The notes: generated by a model not told the origin, from the sequence alone. A DNA stretch of 64,000 nucleotides from Patescibacteria group bacterium (GCA_043798935.1 JAZDOC010000022.1:15299-79298), one strand, 5' to 3'. Counted from the stretch's first letter, positions 4,191 through 25,523 are shown. A program made the numbers and translations.

Positions 4191-4305
4191 TGGCTATATA
4201 AATATTTAATTAAAAACCCACGCCTTTTAAGGGCGGGGCTTTTTGCTGTTATTATATTCTATTTTAGCCCCTGGCTTTATGCTAGTGGGCTAAGCATTCA
4301 AATAT
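4191..4305 (+). repeat. Family A composite repeat, copy 1: about 110 bp with two GC hairpins and flanking T-runs
   Basis: Near-identical to 5683..5795 and to the reverse complement of 20361..20465. Contains the hairpins cccacgcc...ggcggggc and agcccctggc...gtgggct. Confidence 0.65.
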
Positions 4306-4343
4306 ACCAGCTTTATTATTTGTTATTGATCCTAATTTAAATA

Positions 4344-5682: not shown

Positions 5683-5795
5683 TGGCATATATAAATATTT
5701 AATTAAAAGCCCACGCCCATAAAGGGCGGGGCTTTTAGCTCTATTATATATAGTTTTAGCCCCTGGCTTTATGTCAGTGGGCTAAACATTCAATT
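5683..5795 (+). repeat. Family A composite repeat, copy 2, just 3' of the his operon
   Basis: Sequence identity to 4191..4305. The hairpin is followed by a T-run on the minus strand, so it is positioned to terminate hisIE. Confidence 0.65.
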
Positions 5796-5825
5796 ATATC
5801 AACCGCACTGTTCGTTATAGAGCCT

Positions 5826-8428: not shown

Positions 8429-8490
8429 TTATTTATTGTATATATTTTCAGTGCCCCCAATAAATTAGGAGCCTGAAAATTCGTTTGTAT

Positions 8491-10601: not shown

Positions 10602-10606
10602 ATATT

Positions 10607-11728: not shown

Positions 11729-11729
11729 A

Positions 11730-12593
11730 TTATTTAATTATTTTTTCAATCGGCACGACCAGTATGCCTGAAGCGCCGGCTTTTTTTAGCTTTTCAATAA
11801 CTTCCCAAAAAACTTCTTCTTCAACTACTGAATGCAAGGCCACCATTGATGTGTCATTTAAAGCAACTATTGAAGGGCTATCTAATCCGGGAATTAATGA
11901 AACTATTTTTCTTAAATTTTTTACTGGTGCATTAAGCATGATGTATTTTGTCCGTCCAGCTTTCACCACACTTTTAATTCGCATTGTTAATCTGGCAATT
12001 TGTTGCTCTTTCCATTTATTACGTAAAGAATTTTTATCAGCAATCAAAACAGCTTGAGAATTAAAAATTTTAAAACAAGAACTTAGGCCGTTATTAGCTA
12101 AAGTGTTGCCGCTGGAAACAATGTCGCAAATGCAATCAGCTACTTTAGCTGACGGTGCAATTTCTACTGAACCCGATAATTTAATAATTTCAGCTTTAAT
12201 TTTATTTTGTTTTAAAAAATTATTTAAGCAATTAGTATAAGTGGTTGCGATTTTTAGATTATTTATTTTATTTACATTATCTATTTTTTTATTTTTTGGA
12301 CACGCAATATTCAACGAACAAAAGCCAAAATTAAGTTCAGTTAAAATTTTTACATCTACTTGTTTTTCAAATATCACATCTTGGCCCACAATACCCATAT
12401 CTACAGTTCCATCGGCCACATACTCGGGAATATCGTCATCGCGAATAAATAAAATTTCCAGCGGAAAATTCCGACAGCGCGAACAGAGTTTGCGTTTATA
12501 AATTTCAAACTCAAGGCCAGCTTGTTTTAGAAGCTCTAAACTTTTTTCCGACAAACGGCCTTTTTGTTGAATTGCAATTTTTAATGTTTTCAT
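11730..12593 (-). CDS. hisG: ATP phosphoribosyltransferase (long form)
   Basis: At 287 aa this is a long-form HisG with the C-terminal regulatory domain. It is the first gene of the operon. Confidence 0.85.
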   Translation of the reverse strand: MKTLKIAIQQKGRLSEKSLELLKQAGLEFEIYKRKLCSRCRNFPLEILFIRDDDIPEYVADGTVDMGIVGQDVIFEKQVDVKILTELNFGFCSLNIACPKNKKIDNVNKINNLKIATTYTNCLNNFLKQNKIKAEIIKLSGSVEIAPSAKVADCICDIVSSGNTLANNGLSSCFKIFNSQAVLIADKNSLRNKWKEQQIARLTMRIKSVVKAGRTKYIMLNAPVKNLRKIVSLIPGLDSPSIVALNDTSMVALHSVVEEEVFWEVIEKLKKAGASGILVVPIEKIIK

Positions 12594-12673: not shown

Positions 12674-12733
12674 TCACCCCTTTCGATAGAAATGGTGATG
12701 ATGATGTAAAACTGAAGTTAATAATTTAATCAT
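12674..12733 (-). CDS. hisL: Histidine operon leader peptide (MIKLLTSVLHHHHHFYRKG)
   Basis: A 19-codon ORF with five consecutive His codons (CAT CAT CAT CAC CAT), followed by alternative hairpins and a terminator. It is absent from the ORF track because it falls below the length cutoff. Confidence 0.65.
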   Translation of the reverse strand: MIKLLTSVLHHHHHFYRKG

Positions 12734-12887
12734 ATTTTTTTTACAGATTATTTTATAATAATCTTTTATGTTAGCGCATTAATATAGTGCGAGAAGCATT
12801 TCTATATTAATACGTTAACACAGAAAGTTACTATAACTTAAGCATAATAGTCTATATTTATCGACTTGTCAAATTTGCGATTATTAT

Positions 12888-12930
12888 AGCCCTGCCCTTT
12901 ATGGGTGTGGGCTTATAATTAAATATTAAT
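12888..12930 (-). repeat. Family A repeat, degenerate partial copy carrying the first hairpin only
   Basis: agccctgccctttatgggtgtgggcttataattaaatatt matches the core of the A3 copy. The flank ttatagagcct is shared with the region at 5806..5826. Confidence 0.45.
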
Positions 12931-13045
12931 ATAATACCAAATTATTCATTAGTTTTGCTCTACATTGTTTATTATAGAGCCTATTATTCTTGCCTGTATT
13001 CAAGTTTTACTATATAATAAACTCATTATTATTAATGTTAAAAAA

Positions 13046-13267
13046 ATGAAAAAAGTATTATTTTTAGGAGCCGCTTTGTTATTATTAGCCGGCTGTGCTA
13101 CAACCGATTCGAGCGATACAAACACCAATGCTACTGCAAACACTAATTCAGCTGCTACTGTTTCTACAGATGTAAACGTAGGTGAAGAAGGTGCAGCAGT
13201 TGGTGCCAGTATAACTATTGGTGGTAATACCAACACTGTAGAAACCAACACAAACGTAGAAGACTAA
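13046..13267 (+). CDS. Small T/N-rich lipoprotein (LAG|C lipobox)
   Basis: MKKVLFLGAALLLLAGC signal. The ORF track begins earlier at 12965, but the internal ATG with a signal peptide is the likelier start. Confidence 0.5.
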   Translation: MKKVLFLGAALLLLAGCATTDSSDTNTNATANTNSAATVSTDVNVGEEGAAVGASITIGGNTNTVETNTNVED

Positions 13268-13294
13268 ATTTACAACCAGAAAAACTTCATAAAT

Positions 13295-13329
13295 AAGGCT
13301 TTAATACAGATATTAAAGCCTTATTTTTA
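13295..13329 (+). terminator. Intrinsic terminator (aaggctttaata-caga-tattaaagcctt followed by a T-run)
   Basis: A 12 bp stem followed by atttttat. Confidence 0.5.
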
Positions 13330-13396
13330 TATTTGTAATAATTTAATTTTTAATAAAATTTGTTAAAATTAAAGTTTTAGATTATATTGTAGGCAA

Positions 13397-14348
13397 ATGA
13401 AATCACTAGGGCAAAAAAAATCGCATTAATTTATGCCGGTGGCGCCGAGTTTGCGCTCGGTTTTAACGAAACGCTTTTAAAAAGTGGATTGATAATTTTT
13501 TTGAATTCCAGATGATGGCTGAAGTCGAGCCGTTTTTTGTGTTTCATGGCGCGGGTAGTGATGTAAGTTGGTCTTTAGCATCTAACATTGCCAAAGTAAT
13601 AAAAGAGCAACATGAAAATTATGATGGGTTTATAATTACCCACAGCCTGGATAATATAGTTTATACCAGTTCACTTTTGTCATTCATGATTCAAAATTCG
13701 ACTAAGCCTATTATTTTTACAGCTTCGGTTATTCCCGATGAAACAGCTAAAGAATTCATATCGCCACGCCAAGGCATGTATTTCGGAGAATTTGAAACAC
13801 TTAATTTGCGGGCCGGTTTAATAAATACGGTGCAAATTGCCACCATGGATATTGCTGAAATCGGCATTGTAATCGGTAATCATTTAATGCGCGCCGTGCA
13901 ATTTGAACCCAAATGGCTGGCGTATAATGGTTGCATCGATGCAGAAAGAAAAAGTTTTTTAGCCAAAATTCAGTTTGGAATTCATTTAGCTTCTCATGCT
14001 ACCAAACGGTCGAAAGGCACACCTGATTTTAATCTCAAGTATAACGGGCGTATCAAAGCTGTAAGTGTTTATCCGGACGCAACGCTATCTAATGATTTTA
14101 ATGACATAGACGGCATATTTATTATTGCCGGGCAAGAACAATTAGTTCCGAGCTCTTGGCAGCTACCTGCAAATATTCCAATTTGTGCGTATTCAACCGG
14201 TAATAACAAAAAATTCAATAATATTATTACTTGCGATTCCATGGTTACGGAAGCGGCTATTTCTAAATTTGTTTGGACACTGGGGCAGAGTAAAAATATA
14301 AAAGAAATTAAGAAAATAATGTCTAAAAATATCGTCGGTGAATATTGA
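13397..14348 (+). pseudogene. Type I L-asparaginase (AnsA-like) that appears to be decaying: a frameshifted 5' end and substituted catalytic threonines
   Basis: The body 13512..14348 aligns with AnsA (DGFIITHSLDNIVYTSSLLSFMIQNSTKPIIFTAS against the hGTDTmaYTasaLSFMleNlgKPvivTgS consensus). The N-terminal motif KIALIYAGGA (compare TGGT) is encoded upstream in another frame. Two -1 shifts at A8 (13413-13420) and T7 (13496-13502) are needed to join the pieces. Confidence 0.5.
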
Positions 14349-14974
14349 TTATGATTATTTATCTATTTGATCAACAAAAAACCGCCCTGTCTGATTTTTT
14401 AAATCAGAGCGATATTGAGTTGCGGCAAAAATCGCAAGACTCGGGAAATATTGAAACCTGGGATCAAATGGGTATGAATCCGCTCGAGCGCATTGATGCC
14501 ATGATTTTAGAAATTACTGAAACTAATTCGCAGATAAATTATTTATTGGCGCAAGCAATATTACTTCATAAAAATACTTTGTGTCTGTATCGAAAAAATA
14601 ATCCACCCCGGCAGTTATTATTATATTTAAAGAAGAAAAACGTACCACGTTGCTTGCAAGTAAAAGCATATAGCGAAGCGGCATTAAAAGATTTATTTTT
14701 AAAATTTGTTAAAAATATTAAACCCCATATTCAGATTGCCGAGACTCCGCATATTAAATATACTCTGCGTATGACAGAAAATATTGAAAAATATTTAAAC
14801 TGGAAAAGCAAACAAGCCAAATTAAATAAGGCCGATTTCATTCGTGATGAAATTAATCGCATGGCCGAAGCAGATGAAGAATATAATAAGTGGTTAAAAA
14901 TATTAAATGATTCATTTGACAGAAATTTTATTTTTGATAAAATGTTTTTGAAAATAGAGGCGTCACTTTTTTAG
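14345..14974 (+). CDS. Hypothetical protein (209 aa)
   Basis: Open frame with start and stop overlap (ATGA) to the asparaginase-like gene. No recognizable motifs. Confidence 0.4.
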   Translation: MIMIIYLFDQQKTALSDFLNQSDIELRQKSQDSGNIETWDQMGMNPLERIDAMILEITETNSQINYLLAQAILLHKNTLCLYRKNNPPRQLLLYLKKKNVPRCLQVKAYSEAALKDLFLKFVKNIKPHIQIAETPHIKYTLRMTENIEKYLNWKSKQAKLNKADFIRDEINRMAEADEEYNKWLKILNDSFDRNFIFDKMFLKIEASLF

Positions 14975-15056
14975 AGGCGTCTCTATTTTTTTTAAACAGG
15001 TCATGAAAATTGTTTCTGACCAAATAAATCAAGGATTTTTGTGGCGGAACGTATAG

Positions 15057-15106
15057 GGAGCCGTCGCAAAAAACCTGTTGACAACTTAATGCCAAGGCCG
15101 TATATG
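15057..15106 (+). promoter_or_regulatory. Family C motif 1 (gagccgtcgcaaaaaacctgTTGACA-17-TATATG), a putative promoter with an upstream operator, before ssb
   Basis: The same 26-nt block including a -35 box recurs at 20836..20861. Confidence 0.4.
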
Positions 15107-15214
15107 CTTCTCTGTGGAAAGAAGAGCGCCCTCTATTTTTCACTATTTAATTAACACGGCTTTGGTTAACAACAACAAATTTAAATATAATTATTAAAAA
15201 TTAACATTCAAATT

Positions 15215-15622
15215 ATGGATTTGAATCAAGCGACTCTTATCGGGAATGTGGCACGTGACCCCGAAACAAAGACTTTAACCTCGGGCCAAAAAGTGACCAA
15301 GGCAACTTTAGCTACAAATTATGCCTGGAAAGACAAACAAACCGGTGAAAAAAAATCAAAAGCTGATTTTCACACCGTTGTGGGCTGGAATGGAATTGGT
15401 CAAAACATGGCTGATTATTTAAAAAAAGGCGACAAAGTATACTTTGCCGGAAGAATTAATAATTCCTCGTGGGAAGGCAAAGATGGACAGAAAAAGTATT
15501 ATACCGACATTATCGCCAGCAAAATGATTATGTTAGGTCATGCTAGCAAAAAAGAAGAAGTTGAAGACAAAGTTCAGGAAACACAAATTGTGGAAGAGGA
15601 TAATGGGGAGAATCCTTTTTAA
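15215..15622 (+). CDS. ssb: Single-stranded DNA-binding protein
   Basis: OB-fold SSB N-terminus (LNQATLIGNVARDPE...FHTVVGWN) with an acidic C-terminal tail (EEDNGENPF). Confidence 0.85.
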   Translation: MDLNQATLIGNVARDPETKTLTSGQKVTKATLATNYAWKDKQTGEKKSKADFHTVVGWNGIGQNMADYLKKGDKVYFAGRINNSSWEGKDGQKKYYTDIIASKMIMLGHASKKEEVEDKVQETQIVEEDNGENPF

Positions 15623-15678
15623 CAAATATTAGTGTAGAGAAGCGCCATGGTTGTTGTACTATAGAAACACCTACATAA

Positions 15679-15708
15679 TGTAGAGACGCGCCATGGCGCG
15701 TCTCTACA
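15679..15708. terminator. Family B perfect 30-bp palindrome tgtagagacgcgccatggcgcgtctctaca, a likely terminator after ssb
   Basis: Perfect palindrome with a degenerate half-copy at 15633..15650. The same palindrome recurs at 20683..20712. Confidence 0.5.
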
Positions 15709-15788
15709 TTTTCACAAAAACACGAATTTTAACAATTACAACAACGGGTTTTGACACTATTATTTTTAAATAATATAATAACATTCCT

Positions 15789-16294: not shown

Positions 16295-17518
16295 ATGAAA
16301 AAAATATTATTTGCCATAATGTTTTTAATTCTTCCTGTGTTAGTTTCAGCAGAGTTTGATTTTAATCAAGATGCATATGAATTTGGCGATTACTCTGTTG
16401 TTAGCGAATTGGTTCAATTTAATAATTCTGAAACCGTATATTATTTAGCCAAGATTGAAATCAGCGGAGTAGTTTATTATGATTTATTAAAATATAATTC
16501 AAAATATACCGAACCAAAAAAAGTGCATCGTTTTAGCAATAAAGATTTTGATATCAGCAATAAAACAGGCACAACTAGCGGTTTTGAAATAAAAAAAATA
16601 AATAACAAATTATATATTTTTAATAAAGCATTTAATTTTCGAAATAATAAAAAAACAGTTTATTCTTTAAATAAAAAAAATAATCTTAAAAAACGAGCTA
16701 TTAAAACAAATTTCAGTAAACGTTCTTTTATTAGCAACTCATTTAAATTTAATAAAGAATTATTTATTGTTTTCTTCTCTTTAACCAATGAAGCTCATAA
16801 ATATAATTTACATATTTATAAAACCAAGGACGGAATTACATGGGAACATTTAGAACCGCAGGTTTTTAAAAAAACAACTGGCTATTCTGTTATCTCAAAA
16901 AAGATTGGATCATCATTATTTTTTCAAATTGTCGAAGATGCTGATAATTTATATTTATATCAAAACAACGATTTTGTGAAATTGGCAGATGATACTAAAC
17001 TAGAAAAAAGTTTTGCATGGACTGAAGTTTTTAACACAAATACACCAGTAGTAGTTAAAAGTGGTTATAAGTTAAAATATTATCAAAATAACGCATGGAA
17101 CGATACAATTCAAAATAAAATAAACGAAGTTAATGCTAACAATAAAATGGTAGTAGCTGCGAGCAGAAAAGATGACTCTTGGGTTGTGTCCACAAATTTA
17201 AAAAATTTTTATAAAAAAGAATTAAATAAAGAACAGTTAGAAAAATTATACATAGATGATATTAATTATATTCTTGAAATTAGAAAGTTCAATAATAAAA
17301 TAGGCTTATTTACAAACTTAAAGGCATTATCCGATCATTATTCATATCCAAACTACAAGCATATATTTATAAGTGGAAATGGGAAAGATTGGAAATATAT
17401 TAGAGCCAAAACATATAATTTTGTGTCTTATAAAAATAAATTGATATTTCCAAATTATTTTCTTAATTATAATAATTTACAAAATATTGATATAAATTCA
17501 ACTAAAATTAATAAATAA
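16295..17518 (+). CDS. Secreted hypothetical protein (signal peptide), K/N-rich
   Basis: MKKILFAIMFLILPVLVSA signal peptide. No recognizable domain. Confidence 0.5.
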   Translation: MKKILFAIMFLILPVLVSAEFDFNQDAYEFGDYSVVSELVQFNNSETVYYLAKIEISGVVYYDLLKYNSKYTEPKKVHRFSNKDFDISNKTGTTSGFEIKKINNKLYIFNKAFNFRNNKKTVYSLNKKNNLKKRAIKTNFSKRSFISNSFKFNKELFIVFFSLTNEAHKYNLHIYKTKDGITWEHLEPQVFKKTTGYSVISKKIGSSLFFQIVEDADNLYLYQNNDFVKLADDTKLEKSFAWTEVFNTNTPVVVKSGYKLKYYQNNAWNDTIQNKINEVNANNKMVVAASRKDDSWVVSTNLKNFYKKELNKEQLEKLYIDDINYILEIRKFNNKIGLFTNLKALSDHYSYPNYKHIFISGNGKDWKYIRAKTYNFVSYKNKLIFPNYFLNYNNLQNIDINSTKINK

Positions 17519-17544: not shown

Positions 17545-18201
17545 ATGAAAAAAATTTTATTATTCACAACTGTTTTGGCACTAATGCTTACCGGTTGTGC
17601 AACAAATCAAAATCAAGCAGTTCAAAATCAACCTACTAACGTTGTTGCCGAACAAAGTAATGATACGGCCACTGTTAATACTAACACCGACGTTCAAGTG
17701 AAAGTCGTCGCTTCAGCTAGCGAAACCGATGCCACTTCTGACTGGCAAACTCATAGTAATGATAATTATGGATTTTCATTTAAAGCGCCAAGCGAATTTA
17801 TTATTGATGAAGAGAAAAAAGGTGACGGGTATTATTATAATTTAGAGGCTAACGATGAAGATATAAAAATTACAGCTCCAATATTTATAATTCTTAAAAA
17901 AGATAGCGAAGGATTAAATTTATCTGATTGGGCTAAAAAGAATGTAGATGTGAATAATAAATTAAGTTTTCCAGAATACAAAACCAAATCTGGCGTTAAC
18001 GGAATTTCTATGTCTGGCGCAACAGATCTAGCTGATTATGGAAACTACGCTTATTATTCTTATTTTTTCAAAAAAGGAAATTATATTTATGCAGTAGCGG
18101 CTGGTTCGCAAGATCATTCGTTTATTGAAAGTTATAATTACAACAATGATGAAATAATTAGTGCTATATTGAATAGTTTTGATTTTGTTGATGGTTTATA
18201 A
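17545..18201 (+). CDS. Lipoprotein (LTG|C), paralogous to the lipoprotein at 4395..5444
   Basis: MKKILLFTTVLALMLTGC lipobox. Shares the GFSFKAPSEF and FSYP-type motif. Confidence 0.55.
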   Translation: MKKILLFTTVLALMLTGCATNQNQAVQNQPTNVVAEQSNDTATVNTNTDVQVKVVASASETDATSDWQTHSNDNYGFSFKAPSEFIIDEEKKGDGYYYNLEANDEDIKITAPIFIILKKDSEGLNLSDWAKKNVDVNNKLSFPEYKTKSGVNGISMSGATDLADYGNYAYYSYFFKKGNYIYAVAAGSQDHSFIESYNYNNDEIISAILNSFDFVDGL

Positions 18202-18410
18202 ATTTATTCGAATACTATTAACTGGCAAAATATTTAGCGAAATTATTAGATATATTAAATACTAACCCTGTTTTTACTGAATATAAGTGAAGAAATAATA
18301 ATTATTAATAATAAAGTAGTGATAAATATAGAAATATTAAAGTAATTTTGAGTTCCGCTTTTCCCTAAGTCATATTAGGGAAAAAAATGAGCTCACAATC
18401 CGTACAACCC

Positions 18411-18444
18411 GAATTTTGCACGTGAGTTCTGTAGTGCAAAATTC
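18411..18444 (+). promoter_or_regulatory. Perfect 11-bp-stem hairpin (gaattttgcac...gtgcaaaattc) immediately 5' of the island gene's RBS. A second hairpin lies at 18361..18382.
   Basis: An inverted repeat seen directly. It ends 8 nt before the AGAAGGAGAAAGGACC-ATG. Confidence 0.3.
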
Positions 18445-18464
18445 TTTCAGAAGGAGAAAGGACC

Positions 18465-20060
18465 ATGATCAATCAAATGATCGGGTCGATGTCGTGCCTT
18501 CTCATGCTCATGATGAGCACGGGAGTGAAGGCAACGTGCGACGACGGAGCACACGCCTACATGGACGAGTTCGATGGCGTCGTGGCGTACTCCAATGGCG
18601 GATATACCGGCACTGGCTATGGTGATTGTCAGTGCGTTGAGTACATCAAGCGTTTCTACGGAACCGGCTCAGTCGGCAACGGGAACGTGGCATGTACCAA
18701 CCTCGCAAGCCTCTACGGCTTCAACTACTACAGCAACGGCGGCACCACACAGCCTCGAGTCGGTGATGTTCTGTGCTTCAGCTACGGCGCATACGGGCAC
18801 GTGGCCATCATCGATGAAGTGAACAGCAGCTCCGTGGAGATCATCGATCAGAATCGGAGCTCGAGCGACGCCACGCTGGATCTCAGCCTGGCAGTCTCAG
18901 GTGGTCGGTACACGATCGGCAACTTCGGAAGTAGTGCCGTTTATGTGGCGACTGGTTGGGCGCGGGATCCGAGCTACACCCCGCCTTCGACCTGCACCGA
19001 CCACACCTACGACGTGATCGCGGTGGAAGCGAGCGCGGACGGAAGCAGCTACGACTGGGTGAGCTTCTTCCTGCGCGACGATGATACCCTGCAGTCCTAC
19101 GGAACGGTGGCCTCGAATGTGGGCAACACCAGTGGCAACGTGGCCCTGCTCGTCGGCAACATCGACAGCAATTCCTACGACGAGATCGTGGAGGTACGCA
19201 CCAGTGGCAGCAGGACCTACCTGTACGTGTACCAGCCCACCGGCGACGGCGGGTTCGGCTCACGGACATTGTGGCGCACCGAGACCGGATTCGCGGCCGA
19301 GGAAGCGTTCCTGGCCGACACCAACAATGATGGCAAGGCCGATGTGATCCTGGGCAACGAACAGGCCGACTCCGAGAGCGACCACGACATGCAGTGGTAC
19401 AAGTACACGAGCACGGGTTCGTCCTTCAGCTCGTGTAGCAACTGGACCACTGACAACTCCGACGACTCGTTCGGGCAGAACGGCGATGTGTTCGCGATCG
19501 GCGACTTCAACTACAACGGCAAGGCCGAGATCCTGCGCGGTCGCGATGACTACAGCGGGTGCCCGAGCAATCTGGCGTGGTACTGGCTCCAGGCCGATGG
19601 CGACATCTATTCGCCGCACACCTGCTGGGGCTACATGGACAACCAGTTCCTGGTCGGCAACGTGGATACGGACAGCCACGACGAGATCGCGGAAGTGCGG
19701 AGCGCCCACGGCTACTCGGGCTCCACGGTTCCTACGTACTCGTGCGACCTGAACAGCTCCACCGGCGCCCTCACCAGCACCAAGCGCGCTAACGACAGCG
19801 GCGGCACGAGCGGCTGGTACTACATGTACGACGTCAACGAAGACGGCTACGATGACCTGATTCGCTGGAATGCGATGACCGTGACCGATGCTGGCGACGT
19901 GGTGTGGTTGTGCAACAACACGGGAGGCAATTGCTACCACAGCGTCACGCGCACGTTCATGGAGCAGACCTACGAGCAGACCATGGTGACCGGCATCTCG
20001 CAGGGCAGTGGCGACTACCTGCTCTGGGGCTACTTCGGCCAGCACACGGTGTGCGAGTAG
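18465..20060 (+). CDS. Secreted CHAP/NlpC-P60-like cysteine amidase-peptidase fused to FG-GAP/VCBS calcium-binding repeats
   Basis: N-terminal signal-like segment. Cys motif (YGDCQCVEYIKRFY) and His motif (GHVAIIDEV) typical of CHAP. At least five repeats with DxNxDGxxD/E-(I/L)x cores (DTNNDGKADVI, DFNYNGKAEIL, DVNEDGYDDLI, NIDSNSYDEIV, NVDTDSHDEIA). Confidence 0.65.
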   Translation: MINQMIGSMSCLLMLMMSTGVKATCDDGAHAYMDEFDGVVAYSNGGYTGTGYGDCQCVEYIKRFYGTGSVGNGNVACTNLASLYGFNYYSNGGTTQPRVGDVLCFSYGAYGHVAIIDEVNSSSVEIIDQNRSSSDATLDLSLAVSGGRYTIGNFGSSAVYVATGWARDPSYTPPSTCTDHTYDVIAVEASADGSSYDWVSFFLRDDDTLQSYGTVASNVGNTSGNVALLVGNIDSNSYDEIVEVRTSGSRTYLYVYQPTGDGGFGSRTLWRTETGFAAEEAFLADTNNDGKADVILGNEQADSESDHDMQWYKYTSTGSSFSSCSNWTTDNSDDSFGQNGDVFAIGDFNYNGKAEILRGRDDYSGCPSNLAWYWLQADGDIYSPHTCWGYMDNQFLVGNVDTDSHDEIAEVRSAHGYSGSTVPTYSCDLNSSTGALTSTKRANDSGGTSGWYYMYDVNEDGYDDLIRWNAMTVTDAGDVVWLCNNTGGNCYHSVTRTFMEQTYEQTMVTGISQGSGDYLLWGYFGQHTVCE

Positions 20061-20360
20061 ACGCATCACGGTACTAGCGCGCGACTAGTTTCAAACGGCG
20101 AGTAGGCGAAACGGCCAAAGCTCGCAAAGGTTCGATAGTTCTTTTTTATACGAAGGAGTTTGAGTAGGGAATTCACTTCTTCGTCGCGAGGGCGCTCGCC
20201 TAGCAGTTAAAGTTTCATGCTAAGTCCGTATGGATTTTTCAAAAAAACTTACACTGCTAGGCGGGCCACGATTCTTTAAAAAAGTTTATGTTTAATATAA
20301 ATATATTAAACATTTTTTGCATTATTAAGCTGACATTAATAATTAATTGGTTTATATAAT

Positions 20361-20465
20361 TGAATGTTTAGCCCACTGGCATAAAGCCAGGGGCTAAACT
20401 ATATATAATAACAAATAAAAAGCCCCGCCCTTTATGGGCGTGGGCTTTTTATTAAATATTTATCA
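20361..20465 (-). repeat. Family A composite repeat, copy 3 (reverse orientation), just 3' of the island gene
   Basis: Its reverse complement matches 5683..5795. Confidence 0.65.
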
Positions 20466-20600
20466 TTTACAGCCCGCGTTAGCCCTCGTCGGGAGACTCG
20501 GGTTCTTTGATTAATTTCAACCAAGAGGGCGAGTCTCTCCGGCCTCGCTGAGGCAAAGCCGAGAGCGGGCCTGACGAGCCCGATAAAAACCCACGCGCTA
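20466..20600. other. GC-rich structured segment of about 135 bp, with terminal gcccgc/gcgggc pairing and an internal gggagactcg/cgagtctctcc stem. It may be an ncRNA or an island remnant.
   Basis: Inverted repeats seen directly. The composition resembles the island but is separated from it by repeat A3. Confidence 0.3.
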
Positions 20601-20603
20601 TTC

Positions 20604-20712
20604 ATGTTTTGTAGAGACGTAGCATGGATATCCTGTAGAGACGCGGCGGAAAATTTGTATAGAGACGCGATACGGATATCCTGTAGAGACGCGCCATGGC
20701 GCGTCTCTACAT
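20604..20712 (+). repeat. Family B tandem array: four units of about 24 bp beginning tgtagagacg, ending in the perfect 30-bp palindrome
   Basis: Units start at 20610, 20634, about 20657 and 20683. The last equals the palindrome at 15679..15708. Confidence 0.55.
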
Positions 20713-20835
20713 TACATATTACACATAAAATCAGGCATTTTATAGACGGCGCAACATGTTTAGCGCCGTCTCTTGATATATTTGTCCACATGCCAATAGG
20801 CCATTTTTAATGCTAACAATAGCCAATTTCACGAA

Positions 20836-20861
20836 TGGAGCCGTCGCAAAAACCCTATTGA
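20836..20861 (+). promoter_or_regulatory. Family C motif 2 (gagccgtcgcaaaaaccctaTTGACG)
   Basis: A second copy of the motif found before ssb. Confidence 0.35.
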
Positions 20862-20955
20862 CGTTTTATATACATTGTTGTTAGTTTGTAGTAGAGAGTT
20901 TCAACGCCTCTCTCTTTCTTCCCTCCAATTGCAATTCATCTAAATGGACTGGCAA

Positions 20956-20983
20956 TTGACGGGAAATAAAAACAGCGTAAAAT
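20956..20983 (+). promoter_or_regulatory. Sigma-70-like promoter TTGACG-16-TAAAAT driving the leader of the downstream cassette
   Basis: Consensus-like hexamers with 16-nt spacing. Followed by a GGAGGG Shine-Dalgarno site and a micro-ORF. Confidence 0.4.
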
Positions 20984-21021
20984 ATAGTGCATCTTGCCCT
21001 AAGAATCGATTAGGAGGGTAA

Positions 21022-21048
21022 ATGAAAACTTATAAGACAGCAACATAG
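21022..21048 (+). CDS. Candidate 8-codon micro-ORF (MKTYKTAT) with a strong Shine-Dalgarno site, speculative
   Basis: aggagggtaaATG. It lies about 30 nt downstream of the predicted transcription start. Confidence 0.2.
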   Translation: MKTYKTAT

Positions 21049-21127
21049 GGAATTGTTGTCTGACAAATCTCTATTGTAATGAAGCCTGTTTTCCACTACT
21101 ATTTTACGCTGATTTTTATTCTAAAAA

Positions 21128-21316
21128 ATGTTAGAAACTATTATGAATATTTTAGAAGAATTATTTGAAAGATGGGGGTTTATCAGTTTATTTTTTGCTT
21201 TTTTGGTATTAATTAATCATGAATATAAAATTATTAGAACTGGTTATATGACCAGTTTTTTGTTTTATGAAGAAGCTGTGGCTAGGGTAAAAAGAGAGTA
21301 TCAAAAAACGATTTAA
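21128..21316 (+). CDS. Small single-TM protein (62 aa), hypothetical
   Basis: Open frame with a hydrophobic segment GFISLFFAFLVLI. Confidence 0.3.
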   Translation: MLETIMNILEELFERWGFISLFFAFLVLINHEYKIIRTGYMTSFLFYEEAVARVKREYQKTI

Positions 21317-21515
21317 ATATAACTTATCCACATCGAGATAAATTATTTTTTCTGAAATTGACAAAAAGGTGATACAATGTTCATGTATTTATTTGATTGG
21401 TATAAAAAAATAGCAATAATTTATATAAATATTAATTAATCAGAATTTTATTATTGTCAACTAATAAAATTTTATTAATGAAATATTTGTTAATTAATTT
21501 TTTGTCTAAACATTA

Positions 21516-22964
21516 ATGAAAAATAACAAAAATAAAATTAAAATTTTAATTTTTGGCGCTAGTGGTTTAGTTGGTAGCAGTGTTTTAAGAGAACTATTAC
21601 AAAGAGGCTATAAAAAAATAGCATTAGCGTACTTTGAAGATAAAAAATTAAGTGTTAACAGACTAAGAATAATTGAAAAAGAATATAGTGTTTGTTTAAA
21701 GAAATATGAAAAAAATGTATTTGTACAAAAAAATTTAAGCAATGACTCTTTTCAGAATATATTTTCTTCAATCAATAAGACAAAAAGTCTAGAGAGATAT
21801 ATAAAAAATAAAAAATTAAGCAAAGAAAGTTCAGTATTATTTGATATAATCAATGATTTTAAACCAACTTTTATAATTGATTGTATTAATACTGCCACTA
21901 TTTGTTCTTACATTAATAACAATGGAAAAAACGATAAAACAAGTTTAGGTTTATTTTTATTATTGAAATATTTTCAAAATTTAAATAATGTTTTTAAAAG
22001 AAATTTTGCCTCAAAAGATTTTCATGAAATTCAAAAATATATAAAAATTGGTACAACTGGCATTGGTGGCATGGGCTTAAATATGCCTTTTACACACGGA
22101 GAAGACAAGCCATCGATGTCTCTTTTAAAAAAGGTTGCGTTTGCTGGTGCTCAAACGAATATATTATTAGCTATGCGAAGAAACAATTATATAAAAATAA
22201 AAGAAATTATACCCTCAACAGCAATTTTTTCTAAAGAATTATTGATCTCTCAGAATGATAGAATTATGAAATATCAGAAATCATTAAAGATAAATAACAA
22301 AAATACGCATTTTGGTTTCGATGGCGGTGAAAGTGGTTTATATTCAGTTGAAGAATTTTCATTGTTATCTAATAAAGCCCAAATGGGTTTTATTGAAGTA
22401 ATGTTTTTAGCGAAAATTATTGCGGATGAATTATTTAAAGATAAACAGGATGCTCTGCTAGGCCTTGATAAATATTGTATTAAAAATCATCGTAACTCAT
22501 ATAAATTGCGGAAAAAAATGATAAATGATGCAAAACAAATTATGGCGCTTCATAATATTCAATGTGTAGCACACGGTAATTTAGGCCCATATATAATAAG
22601 GCGGATTCTTTTTGAGGCTACAATTTTTACAAAATATCTAACAAAAAACAGATTTATTTTTTTTAAATCTAATAATAAAGTAATGGCAATTGAAATTAAC
22701 AAAGATTTAATGAAAGATAGAACATTAGTTGATGAAATAAATTTTTCAGGTTTAAAATTTATAAAATATAATTATAAAAAAAATCAGAAATCAATAAAAA
22801 AAGATTCTTTATTGATTTATATTGATGAAAAAAAATGCAGACATTGGAAAACACATTTCTCTTTACTTGGTTTACAGAAAAAAAATGCTATAATACCAAC
22901 AATTAGTGAGCTTGTCTCTAATTTAATCATTTTCTACAATAATGATTTACAAAAATTTAGTTAA
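21516..22964 (+). CDS. NAD(P)-binding Rossmann-fold protein (482 aa) with a large uncharacterized C-terminal region
   Basis: N-terminal motif KILIFGASGLVGSSVLRELLQRG (GxxGxxG). Translationally coupled to the next gene by a 23-nt overlap. Confidence 0.5.
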   Translation: MKNNKNKIKILIFGASGLVGSSVLRELLQRGYKKIALAYFEDKKLSVNRLRIIEKEYSVCLKKYEKNVFVQKNLSNDSFQNIFSSINKTKSLERYIKNKKLSKESSVLFDIINDFKPTFIIDCINTATICSYINNNGKNDKTSLGLFLLLKYFQNLNNVFKRNFASKDFHEIQKYIKIGTTGIGGMGLNMPFTHGEDKPSMSLLKKVAFAGAQTNILLAMRRNNYIKIKEIIPSTAIFSKELLISQNDRIMKYQKSLKINNKNTHFGFDGGESGLYSVEEFSLLSNKAQMGFIEVMFLAKIIADELFKDKQDALLGLDKYCIKNHRNSYKLRKKMINDAKQIMALHNIQCVAHGNLGPYIIRRILFEATIFTKYLTKNRFIFFKSNNKVMAIEINKDLMKDRTLVDEINFSGLKFIKYNYKKNQKSIKKDSLLIYIDEKKCRHWKTHFSLLGLQKKNAIIPTISELVSNLIIFYNNDLQKFS

Positions 22965-24495
22965 TTCTTTTTTCCCAGCACCATATCCCGTTAAATCAAC
23001 GGCTGAACTTGAACAACTCTTTTTAGACTTTTCAGTCGAGGATTTTTTTAATTTCCTGAAAAATGTTGATATTGGGCTTATTAACGAAATTTCAAATCAG
23101 CGTGTGCTTGAGCTTTTTAACTTAGCAGCGCACCATGTTCCAGCATATAAGGATTTTCTAAAAAAAAATAATATTAATTCTAATGATATTAAGGATATAA
23201 ATGATTTTTCACTTGTTCCAATTATGGACAAGTCTAATTATTTGAATAAGTATTCTATTGAAGAGCTTTCATGGGATGGAAAATTAAATGGGCATAGCAT
23301 GCTATCAGTAAGTTCTGGAACATCCGGTAAGCCATATTATTGGCCCAGGAGTATATATTTAGAATATGAAACGGCAATTACACACGAGATTTTTTGCAAC
23401 ATGTTTTTTGACATTAAAAATAAAAAAACATTGGTAATAGTTGCATATGCAATGGGAATGTATGTTGCTGGAACATTTACATTAAATTCTTTTAGTAAAC
23501 TAGCAAAAAAAGGATATAAAATTTCAGTTGTTTCACCAGGCTTAGATGAAACTGAAGTTCTTCGAATAGCGGAAGATTTATATCAAGATTATGACCAAAT
23601 AATTTTAGCAGGCTATCCGCCATTTGTTAAAGATATTCTTGATTATGGTATTGCTAATAATATTTCATTAGACAAATATAATTTAAAATTTATTTTTGGT
23701 GCAGAAAATTTTAGTGAGGAATGGCGATCATATGTATTGAATTTAGCTGGTCATAAATCGTTATTTAAAATCCCGTATTATTCAATGAACACATACGGGT
23801 CAGCCGATTGTGCTATTTTGGGTCACGAAACACCATTTTCTATTAAATATCGCCGATTCATAAAATCACAAAACATGGAACGCATTGCCTTTAATTGTGA
23901 ACACATGCCAACGTTGGTTCAATTTAATCCATTTGTTAAATATTTTGAATTAGTTAATCAAAAGTTAATTTTTAGTGCTAATGGCGGCATCCCTCTTATA
24001 AGGTATAATATTAATGACTTAGGAAATATAGTTTCTCACAAAGAGTTATGCAACAAGCTCAAAATAAATTTTATTGATTCGGATTTTTCGTCGGAAAATA
24101 AATTTAATAAATTTCCATTTCTTTATTTATACGGTAGAGCAGGGAATACAGTTACAATATATGGAGTAAATATTTACTATGAAAATATTAAGATGGCTCT
24201 AGAAAATCAGCAAATAATTCATATTGTATCAGGGAAATTTTCATTAAAGACTACTGTAGATAAAGGATATAATCAATCTTTAGAAATTGATATTGAGTTG
24301 TCCACTAAAAAAGATGCTTCAAATAACGAAAAAGGATTAATTAGTACTATTATTCAGCACACTCTAGAACAAAATAATCTAGAGTATAAAAAATTAAAAT
24401 TAAAAATTGGCAGCAAAGCAATTCCAAAGATAAATTTTTATTTAAGAAATCATTTTAAACAAATTAAAAGTAAACATAAATGGATAGAAAATTGA
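22942..24495 (+). CDS. Adenylate-forming enzyme of the PaaK / coenzyme F390 synthetase / CapK family
   Basis: SSGTSGKPYYWPRS matches the PaaK-type SSGTTGKP AMP-binding loop. The approximately 500-aa size fits the family. Confidence 0.55.
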   Translation: MIYKNLVNSFFPAPYPVKSTAELEQLFLDFSVEDFFNFLKNVDIGLINEISNQRVLELFNLAAHHVPAYKDFLKKNNINSNDIKDINDFSLVPIMDKSNYLNKYSIEELSWDGKLNGHSMLSVSSGTSGKPYYWPRSIYLEYETAITHEIFCNMFFDIKNKKTLVIVAYAMGMYVAGTFTLNSFSKLAKKGYKISVVSPGLDETEVLRIAEDLYQDYDQIILAGYPPFVKDILDYGIANNISLDKYNLKFIFGAENFSEEWRSYVLNLAGHKSLFKIPYYSMNTYGSADCAILGHETPFSIKYRRFIKSQNMERIAFNCEHMPTLVQFNPFVKYFELVNQKLIFSANGGIPLIRYNINDLGNIVSHKELCNKLKINFIDSDFSSENKFNKFPFLYLYGRAGNTVTIYGVNIYYENIKMALENQQIIHIVSGKFSLKTTVDKGYNQSLEIDIELSTKKDASNNEKGLISTIIQHTLEQNNLEYKKLKLKIGSKAIPKINFYLRNHFKQIKSKHKWIEN

Positions 24496-25523
24496 AGGAA
24501 TATAGAATATTAAATTATAATCATGATCGCTCCTCGCTTGATGTACTATTTAATAATGGAGCTCAAGTTATTGATTTTTTCAACGAACAATTATCTGAAT
24601 TAAATAATATTCAATTACAAGTTGATCAAAATAATAGTTATAAAACAAGAAATTGTTCCAATTTAAAAAAAGAAGGTAATTGGGTTTGGTATCCATGGTT
24701 AAATTCTCTTGTGCATGTTCTTAAAGAAAGTGATTTTTTTGAAGTAAAAACTGCAAGGAACAAACTATTAATTAATAAAAATGAACAGTTAAATTTTTAT
24801 AACTACAAAATAGGAATAGCAGGTTTATCAGTTGGGAATAGCATTGCAACAACTATTAAGCTCCAGGGAGGTGCAAAAAAAATTAAAATAGCTGATCATG
24901 ATACATTATCTTTATCAAATACAAATCGAATAAAGGCAGGCATTAATAATTTAGGTTTAAAGAAGACTGAAATAACAAGACGTCAGATTTTAGAGATTGA
25001 CCCATATTCAGATATTTCAGTATATTCAGATGGAATAAATTTAAATAATGTTACCGATTTTATTAATGATATAGATTTAATTATTGATGAGGTTGATGAT
25101 TTTAAAATAAAAATTTTGTTAAGAGAACAGGCGAGAATAAAAAAAATTCCCTTGTTAATGATTACAGACAATGATGACGGTGCATTAATTGATTATTATC
25201 CATATAATTATATTGATAAAGTTCCATTGTTTTATAACATTGCCGACACTATTCTATACAATTTTTTAAAAAAAGAAACAATTACAAAACAAGAAATGGT
25301 GCAATTAAGTTCAGAAATAGTTGGTAAATCAAATATTTCAAAAAGAATGAATACCTCGTTACAATTAATAGGCAAAGAGCTTTATTCATGGCCTCAGCTT
25401 GGAACGGCCGCCACTTTTTCCGGAGTTATTGGTTGTTATATGGTAAGAATGCTTGCAAACGGTCAACAATTTAATTTTAATCGCAAATTAATTAGCATTA
25501 ATAATTTATTAGAATGTTATTAA
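24480..25523 (+). CDS. E1-like (ThiF/MoeB/MccB family) adenylyltransferase with an N-terminal extension of about 100 aa
   Basis: Rossmann motif KIGIAGLSVGNSIA, followed by KIKIADHDTLSLSNTNR (compare DxDxVExSNLNRQ) and DLIIDEVDDFKIKILLRE. Confidence 0.6.
   Translation: MDRKLKEYRILNYNHDRSSLDVLFNNGAQVIDFFNEQLSELNNIQLQVDQNNSYKTRNCSNLKKEGNWVWYPWLNSLVHVLKESDFFEVKTARNKLLINKNEQLNFYNYKIGIAGLSVGNSIATTIKLQGGAKKIKIADHDTLSLSNTNRIKAGINNLGLKKTEITRRQILEIDPYSDISVYSDGINLNNVTDFINDIDLIIDEVDDFKIKILLREQARIKKIPLLMITDNDDGALIDYYPYNYIDKVPLFYNIADTILYNFLKKETITKQEMVQLSSEIVGKSNISKRMNTSLQLIGKELYSWPQLGTAATFSGVIGCYMVRMLANGQQFNFNRKLISINNLLECY

Follow-up and report, generated by a model that had tools for sequence, protein, structure and literature searches.

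Should a GC-rich gene in an AT-rich chromosome be taken for a recent import? Atypical GC content is routinely taken to mean that a gene arrived recently by horizontal transfer, and it has also been put forward as a clue to the hosts of uncultured episymbionts. The question is posed sharply by a single gene in a 64,000-nucleotide stretch of DNA from a Patescibacteria group bacterium (hereafter, the window). A preliminary description, made from this sequence alone, had proposed that the gene encodes a secreted wall hydrolase that was privately acquired from a high-GC donor. Here we examine the composition of the gene and its flanks, its predicted product and its relatives.

An outlier gene with GC-rich flanks

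The gene lies at 18465..20060 on the plus strand and encodes 531 amino acids, exactly the ORF first described. Its GC content is 0.605 (GC1 0.51, GC2 0.47, GC3 0.833), compared with a mean of 0.339 for the other 46 ORFs of the window, for which GC3 averages 0.277 (s.d. 0.047). With a GC3 z score of 11.7, the gene is foreign-looking in composition, as had been stated. GC in 300-bp windows is 0.21–0.30 up to 18349, 0.57–0.64 over 18500–20000 and 0.36 at 20150–20449. At 40-bp resolution, the rise occurs about 80 bp 5′ of the ATG and the drop about 200 bp past the stop codon, matching the abrupt changes reported at 18388 and 20272. Across the 64 kb, only the hydrolase gene and a segment at 20451–20700 (0.52) exceed 0.50 GC in 200-bp windows; the PBP and Mur ligase genes of the window, used as controls, have ordinary GC.

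Codon preference is inverted relative to the neighbours, which bears out the earlier remark on GC3-rich codons. AAG encodes 100% of Lys residues (background 12%), CAG 93% of Gln (23%), TTC 100% of Phe (16%), and CTG and CTC together 89% of Leu (10%). G-ending and C-ending codons are both raised in each codon class. Residue usage is shifted too, with Lys at 1.1% versus 9.2%, and the protein is low in Ala (6.4%), Arg (3.0%) and Pro (1.5%). Because the non-coding leader and 3′ flank are also GC-rich, and G3 and C3 are both up, we attribute the pattern to a tract-wide GC effect and not to codon optimisation of NNY codons.

Upstream, the AT-rich spacer ends in a hairpin (TTTCCCTAA/TTAGGGAAA; 18360..18383, plus strand) that we found by inspection of the sequence and that is likely to be the terminator of the preceding lipoprotein gene; most related loci have an analogous hairpin after the stop codon of their lipoprotein gene. 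The GC rise starts right after this hairpin. The 5′ leader (18388..18464, plus strand) has a GC content of 0.40–0.45, against 0.12–0.23 farther upstream, and folds into two mutually exclusive hairpins, GAGCUCAC/GUGAGUUC and AAUUUUGCAC/GUGCAAAAUU. A UUCUUUC motif adjoins the Shine–Dalgarno sequence AGAAGGAGA (18449–18457), which is strong, as first described. A leader hairpin is conserved at the same position in relatives, but the version in the window is divergent: this copy has neither the conserved CUAG leader hairpin nor the MERYxR signal peptide of most relatives. For these structures we relied on single-sequence folds, with no covariance model built, because the MAFFT and RNAalifold consensus of the 5′ leaders was poor, with hairpin arms out of register.

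The 3′ flank (20061..20272, plus strand) has a GC content of 0.35–0.57, is highly structured (minimum free energy (MFE) of −76 kcal/mol over 215 nt) and contains an inverted repeat with 22-nt arms (20194–20215/20245–20266). It has no match among the related loci. We rejected an integron attC reading of the repeat at 20194–20266, as the RYYYAAC/GTTRRRY cores were absent on inspection and no integrase was found among the 30 window ORFs scanned, the flanking ones included. Rfam searches of 18200–21500, at gathering and E-value thresholds, returned nothing real, only hairpin look-alikes of attenuator leaders, and the same searches of ten related loci returned no leader family.

The island had been thought to end at a ‘family-A’ repeat that had inserted into or alongside the acquired DNA, with GC-rich debris beyond it. 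Neither part of this claim is supported. The repeat, a 115-nt double hairpin, begins at 20349 (20349..20463), outside the island, and is native to the genome, with inverted copies elsewhere in the window at 5691–5804 (91% identity) and 4198–4306 (87%) and a partial copy at 12888–12927. It is followed by a unique, structured segment of about 0.55 GC (20466..20600; MFE −50 kcal/mol on the plus strand and −63 on the minus strand) that has no Rfam match and recurs neither elsewhere in the window nor in the related loci. Next comes a REP-like array built on TGTAGAGACGCG (20604..20717) that ends in a perfect 30-nt palindrome; it is also native, and an identical 32-nt copy lies at 15679–15710, downstream of ssb. 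Searching 20001–21500 by tblastn with all family proteins and neighbouring ORFs revealed no pseudogene remnant, and there is no coding remnant in 20061–21127.

A predicted secreted wall hydrolase

The protein is probably secreted and exported by Sec. A signal peptide is predicted at residues 1–23 (18465..18533, plus strand; MINQMIGSMSCLLMLMMSTGVKA↓TCDD) from alignment with relatives and from a helix at residues 2–18 of the AF2 model. Its cleavage site aligns with ...AHA↓SSCDDG and ...AVA↓CDG of relatives, and the peptide has no basic n-region. Residues 49–130 (18609..18854, plus strand) match the CHAP domain (Pfam PF05257) at 48.2 bits (cut-off 26; E = 1.6e-12). This agrees with the N-terminal Cys/His pair that had been recognized, and we predict Cys57 in GDCQCVEY and His112 in GHVAIID as the catalytic residues. 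His112 is invariant over 22 aligned homologues, and GHVAI aligns with GHVAV of the solved PcsB CHAP domain; the third polar residue is likely to be Asp128/Asn130. In Foldseek searches, the CHAP part matched the Gsp amidase 3a2z.

The C-terminal part, residues ~177–531 (18993..20057, plus strand), is predicted to form an FG-GAP-like β-propeller on the basis of Pfam, calcium-loop motifs, AF2 and Foldseek. The AF2 model, summarized as six or seven blades, has pLDDT values mostly of 80–95 in the blades, and Cys177 and Cys530 lie at the two ends of the propeller. The FG-GAP/VCBS repeats described earlier were recovered in part: PF13517 (FG-GAP_3) scores 35 bits (cut-off 26.9), and five canonical [DN]x[DN]x[DN][GS]xx[DE] loops occur at residues 232, 285, 347, 399 and 456 with a period of 52–62 residues, but the classical FG-GAP model PF01839 stays below threshold (16.2 bits; cut-off 22.1). 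The best Foldseek match to the propeller was UmbA4 (9oee_A; E = 6e-12), with 14% identity in the structural alignment; the Psathyrella lectin 2bwm (E = 1e-7) and integrin αV also ranked among the top fold matches. The propeller of the model is thus a putative lectin or wall-binding module. Signal peptide, CHAP domain and propeller together support the proposed secreted, wall-targeting hydrolase.

Several known systems resemble this protein in part. With CHAP hydrolases (PF05257; pneumococcal PcsB, and staphylococcal and phage CHAP amidases and endopeptidases) it shares the Cys–His papain-like domain and, by prediction, wall-directed secretion; here, however, CHAP is fused to a 350-aa calcium-loop propeller instead of a coiled coil, SH3b or LysM, is interchangeable with M23 in close relatives and is encoded by a gene of anomalous composition that has a PsbP-like lipoprotein gene as its partner. 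Phage endolysins and bacteriocin-type murein hydrolases follow the same two-module logic, with domain swaps at a sharp linker junction, but our hydrolase has no phage context and no holin, occupies a conserved chromosomal slot among chromosomal genes and uses a propeller as its binding module. Phage, viral-contig and plasmid collections contained no family match. Integrin-α and Psathyrella velutina lectin (PVL) have seven-bladed propellers with FG-GAP-like repeats and DxDxDG calcium loops in common with the window protein, and PVL (2bwm) was crystallised with a GlcNAc derivative; they differ in that here the classical FG-GAP model is below threshold and the blades number six or seven. The calcium-loop propeller is also shared with the UmbA lectins of Streptomyces umbrella toxin particles (PDB 9oee; PMC13274773), and in UmbA4 it is this propeller that binds the wall glycopolymer teichuronic acid and determines which species is targeted (PMC13274773). 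Unlike UmbA, the window protein has no trypsin-like (Pfam) or bulb-lectin domain and no UmbB or UmbC nearby, and its lectin-like part is fused to a hydrolase.

Relatives in the same chromosomal slot

A word-indexed protein search missed the family twice; an exhaustive HMMER search of 1.84 billion representatives recovered it, with 17 clusters at E < 1e-30, all consisting of CHAP or M23 followed by the propeller. In that search, no protein from any source exceeded 40% full-length identity to the window protein, which is a singleton cluster in the databases. Named members belong to Patescibacteria, Kerfeldbacteria or unclassified ‘bacterium’ metagenome-assembled genomes (MAGs). A metagenome scan for family loci yielded one locus. 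An initial family alignment was too heterogeneous to be used for scanning loci. We read the genomic context of 12 family genes on 11 contigs, with about ten clusters, including P0075, falling outside this set. With its abundance of Ala, Arg and Pro, the P0075 protein could come from a GC-rich genome; we considered its C-terminal tail as a MYXO-CTERM sorting signal and dropped this reading when no NCBIfam model matched. Several family members contain MopE repeats, which are typical of Myxococcota.

All 12 context-read relatives reside in Patescibacteria-type genomes of 34–46% GC, none of them GC-matched to the hydrolase gene. The gene is nonetheless GC-rich in each. Its GC3 and that of its neighbours are 0.83 versus 0.28 in the window, 0.52 versus 0.27 in L001, 0.75 versus 0.40 in L005, 0.60 versus 0.20–0.25 in L006, 0.80 versus 0.35 in L007, 0.68 versus 0.37 in L008, 0.65 versus 0.35 in L009, 0.66 versus 0.30 in L010, 0.79 versus 0.29 in L011 and 0.76 versus 0.33–0.45 in L014; the paralogues L002 (0.74) and L003 (0.80) have neighbours at about 0.41–0.45. 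Hydrolase GC3 varies from 0.52 to 0.83 without following genome GC, and the window combines the highest value with the lowest-GC genome. Among 148 ORFs of at least 120 aa in about 190 kb (the window and ten loci, L014 being left out), 14 were GC3 outliers, and 12 of these were the eleven hydrolase genes and an N-terminal fragment of the L009 gene. CHAP plus FG-GAP proteins from two genomes outside the family served as controls: one (L012) has no island and the other (L013) a GC3 excess of only about 0.1.

These homologues do not support a private acquisition from a high-GC donor. The preliminary description had looked to best homologues in equally AT-rich relatives, with similar GC, as the finding that would speak against it; the relatives are indeed AT-rich, but their homologous genes are GC-rich. 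Because the gene is found in the same slot and is GC-rich in about a dozen AT-rich Patescibacteria, we regard its composition as a long-standing trait of the family and not as a recent gift from a high-GC host. Hydrolase pairs have a dS of 0.83 to >2 and a dN/dS of 0.14–0.48, and their identity (31–44%) is comparable with the values for genes in the flanks (asparaginase 28–30%, SSB 50–63%). As synonymous sites between members are saturated, the GC-richness is not the leftover of one old transfer either.

The recurrence of the locus also bears on whether assembly or binning merged reads of another, GC-rich organism with an AT-rich contig. A chimera would explain the singleton protein cluster, but it needs two junctions within a contig of about 80 kb, the gene is bordered by an orderly succession of native hairpins and repeats, and the arrangement recurs in about ten independent assemblies (NCBI, JGI, ENA and Logan). 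Since these share the same GC-rich gene in the same slot, we judge a chimera very improbable.

Selection on translation or on the transcript alone, with GC-rich codons serving either to slow translation of a hazardous autolysin where the tRNA pool is AT-adapted or to stabilise the mRNA, would suit a trait that is family-wide and stationary over saturated dS, the presence of further GC-rich secreted hydrolase-like genes nearby and a leader with the potential to occlude the Shine–Dalgarno site. We give it a slim chance, in view of the enriched non-coding flanks, the rise of G- and C-ending codons alike in each codon class and the altered residue usage. The GC-rich secreted genes near relatives are an M23 lipoprotein gene in L002 and a lipoprotein gene in L008; they hint at a class-wide phenomenon, but imports could also explain them. 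A reading of the L008 lipoprotein as a C39-like peptidase found no Pfam match.

A recombining locus

Directly upstream of the hydrolase gene, in the window and on all 11 related contigs, lies a low-GC, PsbP-like lipoprotein gene. In the window (17545..18201, plus strand) this gene encodes 218 aa with the lipobox LTGC, matches Pfam PsbP_2 (38 bits) and LPAM_1, and has a host-typical composition (GC 0.32, GC3 0.21). By BLASTP it matches its counterparts in L003, L005 and L008 directly, and those in L001 and L002 are linked through L003/L005. The lipoproteins of L007, L009, L010, L011 and L014 share position and lipobox, most with a TSDW...Y(G)FSF motif, and L006 has a fragment at this position. 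The neighbourhood is partly conserved: a block of asparaginase, a 209-aa ORF and SSB lies upstream in the window, L007 and L009, and the SSB gene is also found in L001; HisKA kinases lie downstream in the window, L001 and L008; and an iPGM–iPGM–PfkB block is common to the window and L008. The 407-aa ORF at 16295–17518 has no detectable homology with the similarly placed ORF of L007.

These observations bear on the proposal of a one-off, recent acquisition from a high-GC host, such as an actinobacterium, as host-derived weaponry. The extreme contrast in composition, flanks included, the Streptomyces lectin UmbA4 as best structural match of the propeller and the singleton status of the window copy would all agree with it. 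Yet the same slot, lipoprotein gene and neighbourhood occur in about ten independent assemblies of AT-rich genomes, no match exceeds 40% identity, each named member comes from Patescibacteria or from an unclassified MAG, and the identity to UmbA4 is only 14%. The window contains no tRNA, and ten flanking ORFs, those nearest the island among them, were scanned without finding an integrase or transposase domain. We also found no direct repeats flanking the island. We see only a small chance that a one-off acquisition is correct.

The hydrolase locus recombines, and CHAP and M23 are interchangeable in close relatives. L007 (CHAP) and L014 (M23) share 1,295 nt of propeller at 97.2% identity up to a sharp junction, and their lipoprotein genes and leaders are 75–84% identical. 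The paralogues L002 and L003 are 81–84% identical in leader, propeller and terminator, and differ in carrying CHAP versus M23. Propeller similarity correlates weakly and positively with lipoprotein similarity (Spearman 0.40), and L001 is the closest relative of the window by both SSB and propeller. In the L007–L011 cluster, polarised singleton changes comprised 18 S>W and 7 W>S, mostly in the three lineages of lower GC3; this underpowered excess would fit import followed by decay.

Discussion

We assign an even chance to the reading that the hydrolase and lipoprotein genes form a resident, recombining two-gene wall-hydrolase module of a Patescibacteria clade, the GC-richness of which is a stationary property of the lineage. 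Leader, coding sequence and 3′ flank would together form a cassette that recombination exchanges and reshuffles among Patescibacteria, and frequent recombination with a GC-biased outcome, whole-transcript selection or both would keep the cassette far from the composition of the genomes. More tentatively, and with the balance of probability somewhat against it, we propose that the hydrolase lineage is actively held at a GC3 of 0.65–0.83 in genomes with a GC3 of 0.25–0.45 by locus-specific GC-biased gene conversion or whole-transcript selection, as an isochore-like, gene-sized island, possibly general to secreted wall hydrolases of Patescibacteria. To our knowledge, gene-specific GC maintenance of such size has no established precedent in bacteria.

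Composition could also be renewed from outside, if serial allelic replacement refills the slot after the lipoprotein gene with cassettes of an unsampled lineage whose GC content is about 60%, each copy then slowly decaying towards the composition of its recipient. Such a lineage could be a host, a Patescibacterium of high GC content or a predator, for instance a myxobacterium. Sharp GC edges that take in the non-coding flanks, codon use typical of bacteria with 60–65% GC, the cassette exchange demonstrated for L002/L003 and L007/L014, the S>W excess in three lineages, GC3 values that do not track genome GC and the MopE repeats of several members are all in keeping with such replacement. So is the window copy itself, an outlier that has neither the usual family leader nor the usual signal peptide and the highest GC3 in the lowest-GC genome; such a pattern would be expected if its allele had been replaced fairly recently from a source not yet sampled. 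On the other hand, 0 of 12 context-read relatives sit in a GC-matched genome, the exhaustive search found no full-length match above 40% identity from any source, the protein contains little Ala, Arg or Pro, unlike proteins that have long evolved at high GC, propeller similarity climbs, if weakly, with lipoprotein similarity, and L001 is nearest to the window by two separate genes. We consider serial replacement unlikely on balance, while granting it a sizeable minority chance.

A resident module has parallels elsewhere. Enterobacterial O-antigen and capsule loci occupy conserved slots and have persistently atypical GC. They share with the hydrolase locus its syntenic, hypervariable surface character, a composition off that of the genome in every lineage and cassette exchange, but they are AT-rich in GC-richer genomes and comprise many genes, whereas here a single gene departs upward by at most 0.55 GC3. 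T6SS Tae/Tai pairs of interbacterial antagonism combine an amidase effector with a lipoprotein immunity protein. As in these pairs, a gene for a fast-evolving, modular wall enzyme always lies beside one for a small exported lipoprotein; in contrast to them, there are no secretion-system genes nearby, the lipoprotein gene is upstream and its immunity role is putative. In the mode of action that we propose, the calcium-binding β-propeller would dock on a cell-wall glycopolymer or glycan, the CHAP Cys–His domain would then cut stem-peptide or amide bonds of peptidoglycan, and the lipoprotein would confer immunity, regulate the enzyme or anchor it. We slightly prefer the view that this putative episymbiont locally breaches the wall of a partner cell to the view that it remodels its own.

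The gene that looks most foreign in the window is thus one that its clade has conserved as a resident, which cautions against reading atypical GC as recent transfer. If its GC-richness is maintained in place, the locus would allow GC-biased conversion or selection at the nucleotide level, long debated in bacteria, to be studied in a natural setting. The module combines a lectin-like propeller and a swappable CHAP/M23 cutter with a partner lipoprotein and a sensor kinase encoded close by. It is a strong candidate for the means by which this clade of Patescibacteria engages the wall of a partner, and its propeller may encode partner specificity.

A GC-rich island around a single gene

The analysis confirmed the island of high GC content placed here by the preliminary description. 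Measured over 300 bp at a time, GC runs at 0.21–0.30 before position 18350, 0.57–0.64 across 18500–20000 and 0.36 by 20150–20449; finer windows place the rise about 80 bp upstream of the ATG and the drop about 200 bp past the stop. Elsewhere in the 64 kb, only a small patch at 20451–20700 exceeds 50% GC (200-bp windows). The lone gene was likewise recovered as first described: a single long ORF on the plus strand (18465..20060, 531 aa) with GC3-rich codons and a Shine–Dalgarno site, AGAAGGAGA, at 18449–18457. The gene has a GC of 0.605 and a GC3 (GC at third codon positions) of 0.833, against a mean GC3 of 0.277 (s.d. 0.047) across the window's remaining 46 ORFs (z = 11.7). Codon choice is inverted in all classes (AAG 100%, CAG 93%, TTC 100%, CTG or CTC for 89% of Leu) and Lys makes up 1.1% of residues versus a background of 9.2%. 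The PBP and Mur-ligase genes of the window have normal composition. Two antisense ORFs within the island (128 and 269 aa; 18883–20069, minus strand) are shadow ORFs, which are expected because A is almost absent from the sense third positions, and the faint resemblance they bear to antisense ORFs of a related locus (L001) is a by-product.

GC excess persists across the hydrolase family

GenBank holds the exact protein, encoded on a 79.8-kb contig, under the title 'MAG: CHAP domain-containing protein [Patescibacteria group bacterium]'. The protein forms a singleton cluster, and a word-indexed protein search matched its CHAP domain only. An exhaustive HMMER search returned 17 clusters at E<1e-30, in all of which this propeller is preceded by CHAP or M23, both wall-cutting catalytic domains, while MopE repeats or further domains come after it in some; the top full-length match was 40% identical. 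Named members come from Patescibacteria, Candidatus Kerfeldbacteria and unclassified 'bacterium' MAGs, and the taxonomy of unlabelled contigs was inferred from synteny with labelled ones.

DNA was retrieved for another 12 genes of the family, spread over 11 contigs (L001–L003, L005–L011 and L014) of NCBI, JGI, ENA and Logan assemblies, and every one (12/12) is a GC-rich island within an AT-richer genome. The best homologue of the window protein (L007) has a GC3 of 0.80 versus 0.35 for its neighbours; two genes on different contigs of one Kerfeldbacteria MAG reach 0.74 (L002) and 0.80 (L003) versus about 0.41–0.45, and L014 carries a full gene at 0.76 and a truncated copy at 0.67 versus 0.33–0.45. 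The remaining genes show 0.52 versus 0.27 (L001), 0.75 versus 0.40 (L005), 0.60 versus 0.20–0.25 (L006), 0.68 versus 0.37 (L008), 0.65 versus 0.35 (L009), 0.66 versus 0.30 (L010) and 0.79 versus 0.29 (L011). At all loci the GC-rich zone includes about 80 nt of leader and 80–200 nt of 3′ flank. When 148 non-overlapping ORFs were scanned blind (about 190 kb; the window and ten loci, L014 having been fetched later), 14 stood out as GC3 outliers, and 12 of these belong to the family: the eleven hydrolase genes and a piece of the L009 gene from its N-terminal end. Two control loci that encode CHAP and FG-GAP domains in another architecture had no GC excess (L012) or a mild one of about 0.1 GC3 (L013).

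Exported wall enzymes more broadly may share the excess, since other secreted genes beside family members are strongly GC-rich too. In L002 these are an M23 lipoprotein gene (5981–6964, plus strand; GC3 0.85) and a 163-aa ORF of unknown kind (7899–8390, plus strand; GC3 0.76). In L008, a lipoprotein of unknown family (8324–9394, plus strand) lies in a region of 0.66–0.70 GC, masked by an antisense shadow ORF of greater length.

The gene resides in a conserved chromosomal slot

In the window (17545–18201) and at every related locus, the hydrolase gene is directly preceded by a homologous, low-GC gene for a PsbP_2-like lipoprotein (GC3 0.21–0.36). The asparaginase, 209-aa ORF and SSB block (13512–15622) is present again in L007 and L009, the SSB gene also in L001; the HisKA kinase (25514–27835) also follows the hydrolase in L001 and L008, and the iPGM–iPGM–PfkB block (34972–39043) is found again in L008. 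This block consists of two tandem cofactor-independent phosphoglycerate mutase paralogues (34972–38075; L008 11132–14261) followed by a PfkB kinase. The hydrolases have diverged to a similar extent (31–44% identity) as the flanking asparaginase (28–30%) and SSB (50–63%), and L001 is nearest to the window by SSB and propeller alike. Shared position and comparable divergence indicate that the hydrolase gene is resident in a conserved slot and is not a private insertion.

Between hydrolase and kinase, the window has three co-directional genes (21516–25523; GC 0.24–0.29) that encode proteins of 482 aa (weak NAD-binding N terminus), 517 aa (no Pfam match) and 347 aa (ThiF-like). Neither L001 nor L008 has them, the kinase coming directly after the hydrolase there, so the slot seems open to other insertions. 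In L005, the module is preceded by a tRNA (3273–3345) and a LOOT RNA (3562–3689; Rfam RF03000, 71 bits), and 2.5 kb downstream of it lie genes for a large serine recombinase and for a terminase (12692–15626), part of a prophage-like element. The window also carries hisG, hisD, hisC, hisB, hisH, hisA, hisF and hisIE domains (5826–12593, minus strand), apparently a complete histidine biosynthesis operon. Patescibacteria generally lack amino-acid biosynthesis, and such an operon is unusual there.

Divergence, cassette exchange and the origin of the GC excess

Synonymous divergence (dS) is 0.83 between two paralogues of one genome and ranges from 1.1 to above 2 for other pairs; dN/dS is 0.14–0.48, and the genes are functional. 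High GC3 has outlasted saturating synonymous turnover, which a single old transfer cannot explain and which contradicts an ancient transfer with residual signal. A one-off gift from a high-GC host, as initially proposed, is contradicted by the conserved slot and the GC excess throughout the family.

The genes do recombine. A CHAP–propeller gene in L007 and the M23–propeller gene in L014 have 1,295 nt of propeller DNA in common at 97.2% identity (L007 8521–9815; L014 12228–13522), and the truncated M23–propeller copy in L014 shares in the match at 10622–10800. The similarity begins abruptly at the linker STTASVHLMSVEP; the catalytic domains are unrelated, the lipoprotein genes and leaders are merely 75–84% identical and the wider context differs. 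L014 carries the lipoprotein–hydrolase module in tandem, with one copy truncated. The two Kerfeldbacteria paralogues, one CHAP and one M23, similarly have leader, propeller and terminator in common (81–84% nucleotide identity) next to lipoproteins of 34–42% identity. These exchanges suggest that leader, coding sequence and 3′ flank form a cassette that shuffles within the Patescibacterial gene pool.

We give about an even chance to the cassette being kept GC-rich in place by putative GC-biased conversion and/or selection on the whole transcript, and favour this reading. No GC-matched genome is home to any of the 12 relatives whose context could be read, and nothing closer came up in the exhaustive search, whatever the source. 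Ala, Arg and Pro are scarce in the protein, the enrichment spans the whole tract, and recombination, a precondition of GC-biased conversion, is demonstrated at the locus. Against this stand an excess of GC-to-AT changes in three lineages (18:7 overall), about ten family clusters outside the context set (including the Ala/Arg-rich cluster P0075), the atypical leader and signal peptide of the window copy, and the further GC-rich secreted genes near some relatives. Serial refilling of the slot from an unsampled GC-rich reservoir is the rather unlikely alternative. Literature searches found the family, its cassette-style domain exchange and its persistent GC excess nowhere described. The protein itself belongs to known kinds, a CHAP hydrolase and an FG-GAP-like lectin propeller; what appears new is foremost the persistent GC excess, along with the domain exchange and the family definition (CHAP or M23 plus propeller, paired PsbP-like lipoprotein, conserved slot).

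Leader and 3′ flank

Most relatives have a conserved 5′ leader (L001 2847–2946, L002 3977–4083, L003 5436–5535, L006 282–393, L007 7865–7967, L009 7561–7655, L010 2157–2253 and L011 739–831) with a hairpin of 9–14 bp directly after the lipoprotein terminator. The hairpin closes with outer pairs CUAG/CUAG (in L007, CCGG/CUGG), and the inner stem varies between loci with apparently compensating changes. On the 3′ side of the hairpin, CCUUCACAA...GUGAGG/GGAG is predicted to pair with the Shine–Dalgarno or start region AUGGAACGG, a pairing that can, as predicted, occlude the Shine–Dalgarno site. The leaders had no match in Rfam and, judged from sequence, may be an undescribed cis-regulatory RNA. 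The window leader is divergent: after the AT-rich spacer and the hairpin at its end (18360–18383), the GC-enriched leader follows with GAGCUCAC/GUGAGUUC, then UUCUUUC...GAAGGAG.

Downstream, 20061–20272 is GC-enriched, strongly structured and unique. The 'family-A' repeat first noted at the island's end and the GC-rich segment noted beyond it are both present; the repeat, taken earlier to have inserted into or alongside acquired DNA, is native. It is a 115-nt double hairpin (20349–20463), MITE- or REP-like in appearance, with inverted copies at 5691–5804 and 4198–4306 and a partial copy at 12888–12927. The two inverted copies flank another PsbP_2-like lipoprotein gene (4395–5444, minus strand), a distant paralogue of the hydrolase's partner. 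REP-like TGTAGAGACGCG units, also native, occur at 20604–20717 and 15652–15710; both arrays end in an identical 32-nt stretch that holds a perfect 30-nt palindrome. A CHAP-family database protein, P0039, weakly matches the translated REP-like region (E 2e-4). The segment at 20466–20600 is unique in the window (about 55% GC, no second copy), has predicted folds of −50 and −63 kcal/mol on the two strands, and gave no coding remnant or Rfam match.

A predicted wall-cutting domain fused to a probable glycan-binding propeller

Pfam assigned CHAP (48 bits, residues 49–130) and FG-GAP_3 (35 bits) above their cut-offs. The domains proposed from sequence thus held, with the predicted catalytic Cys57 (QCVEY) and His112 (GHVAI) and five canonical Ca-loop motifs (residues 232, 285, 347, 399 and 456) present, except that the classical FG-GAP model fell below its cut-off. 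His112 is invariant across 22 homologues, and the CHAP domain is alignable to the solved CHAP of PcsB. In the AlphaFold model (mean pLDDT 79.7; blades mostly 80–95), an N-terminal helix, read as the signal peptide, leads into a CHAP fold and then an all-beta propeller. Foldseek against the PDB ranked first the Streptomyces UmbA4 bound to teichuronic acid (E 6e-12), followed by the Psathyrella velutina lectin, which binds GlcNAc, and by integrin alpha-V; the CHAP part matched the E. coli Gsp amidase. As a lectin, the UmbA4 propeller attaches to a glycopolymer of the wall and determines target specificity (PMC13274773). The likeness to UmbA4 lies in the propeller fold, and it is UmbA4's own propeller that binds teichuronic acid. 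Domains and modelled fold together point to a wall-cutting domain fused to a probable wall-glycan-binding domain.

The protein would be exported by Sec, its propeller would dock with Ca2+ onto a wall glycan or glycopolymer, and CHAP would cleave the peptidoglycan. Remodelling of the organism's own wall is a reasonable but lesser possibility. The cutter can be swapped (CHAP or M23), genomes carry the gene in several copies, additional lectin-like tails vary, dN/dS is rather high and a lipoprotein always adjoins; in these respects the family resembles antagonism or host-interaction factors more than housekeeping autolysins. We lean towards a hydrolase that breaches the wall of a partner. The window encodes peptidoglycan synthesis genes (PBP, Mur ligase), and an organism that makes its own peptidoglycan would have reason to pair such an enzyme with a putative immunity or regulatory lipoprotein.
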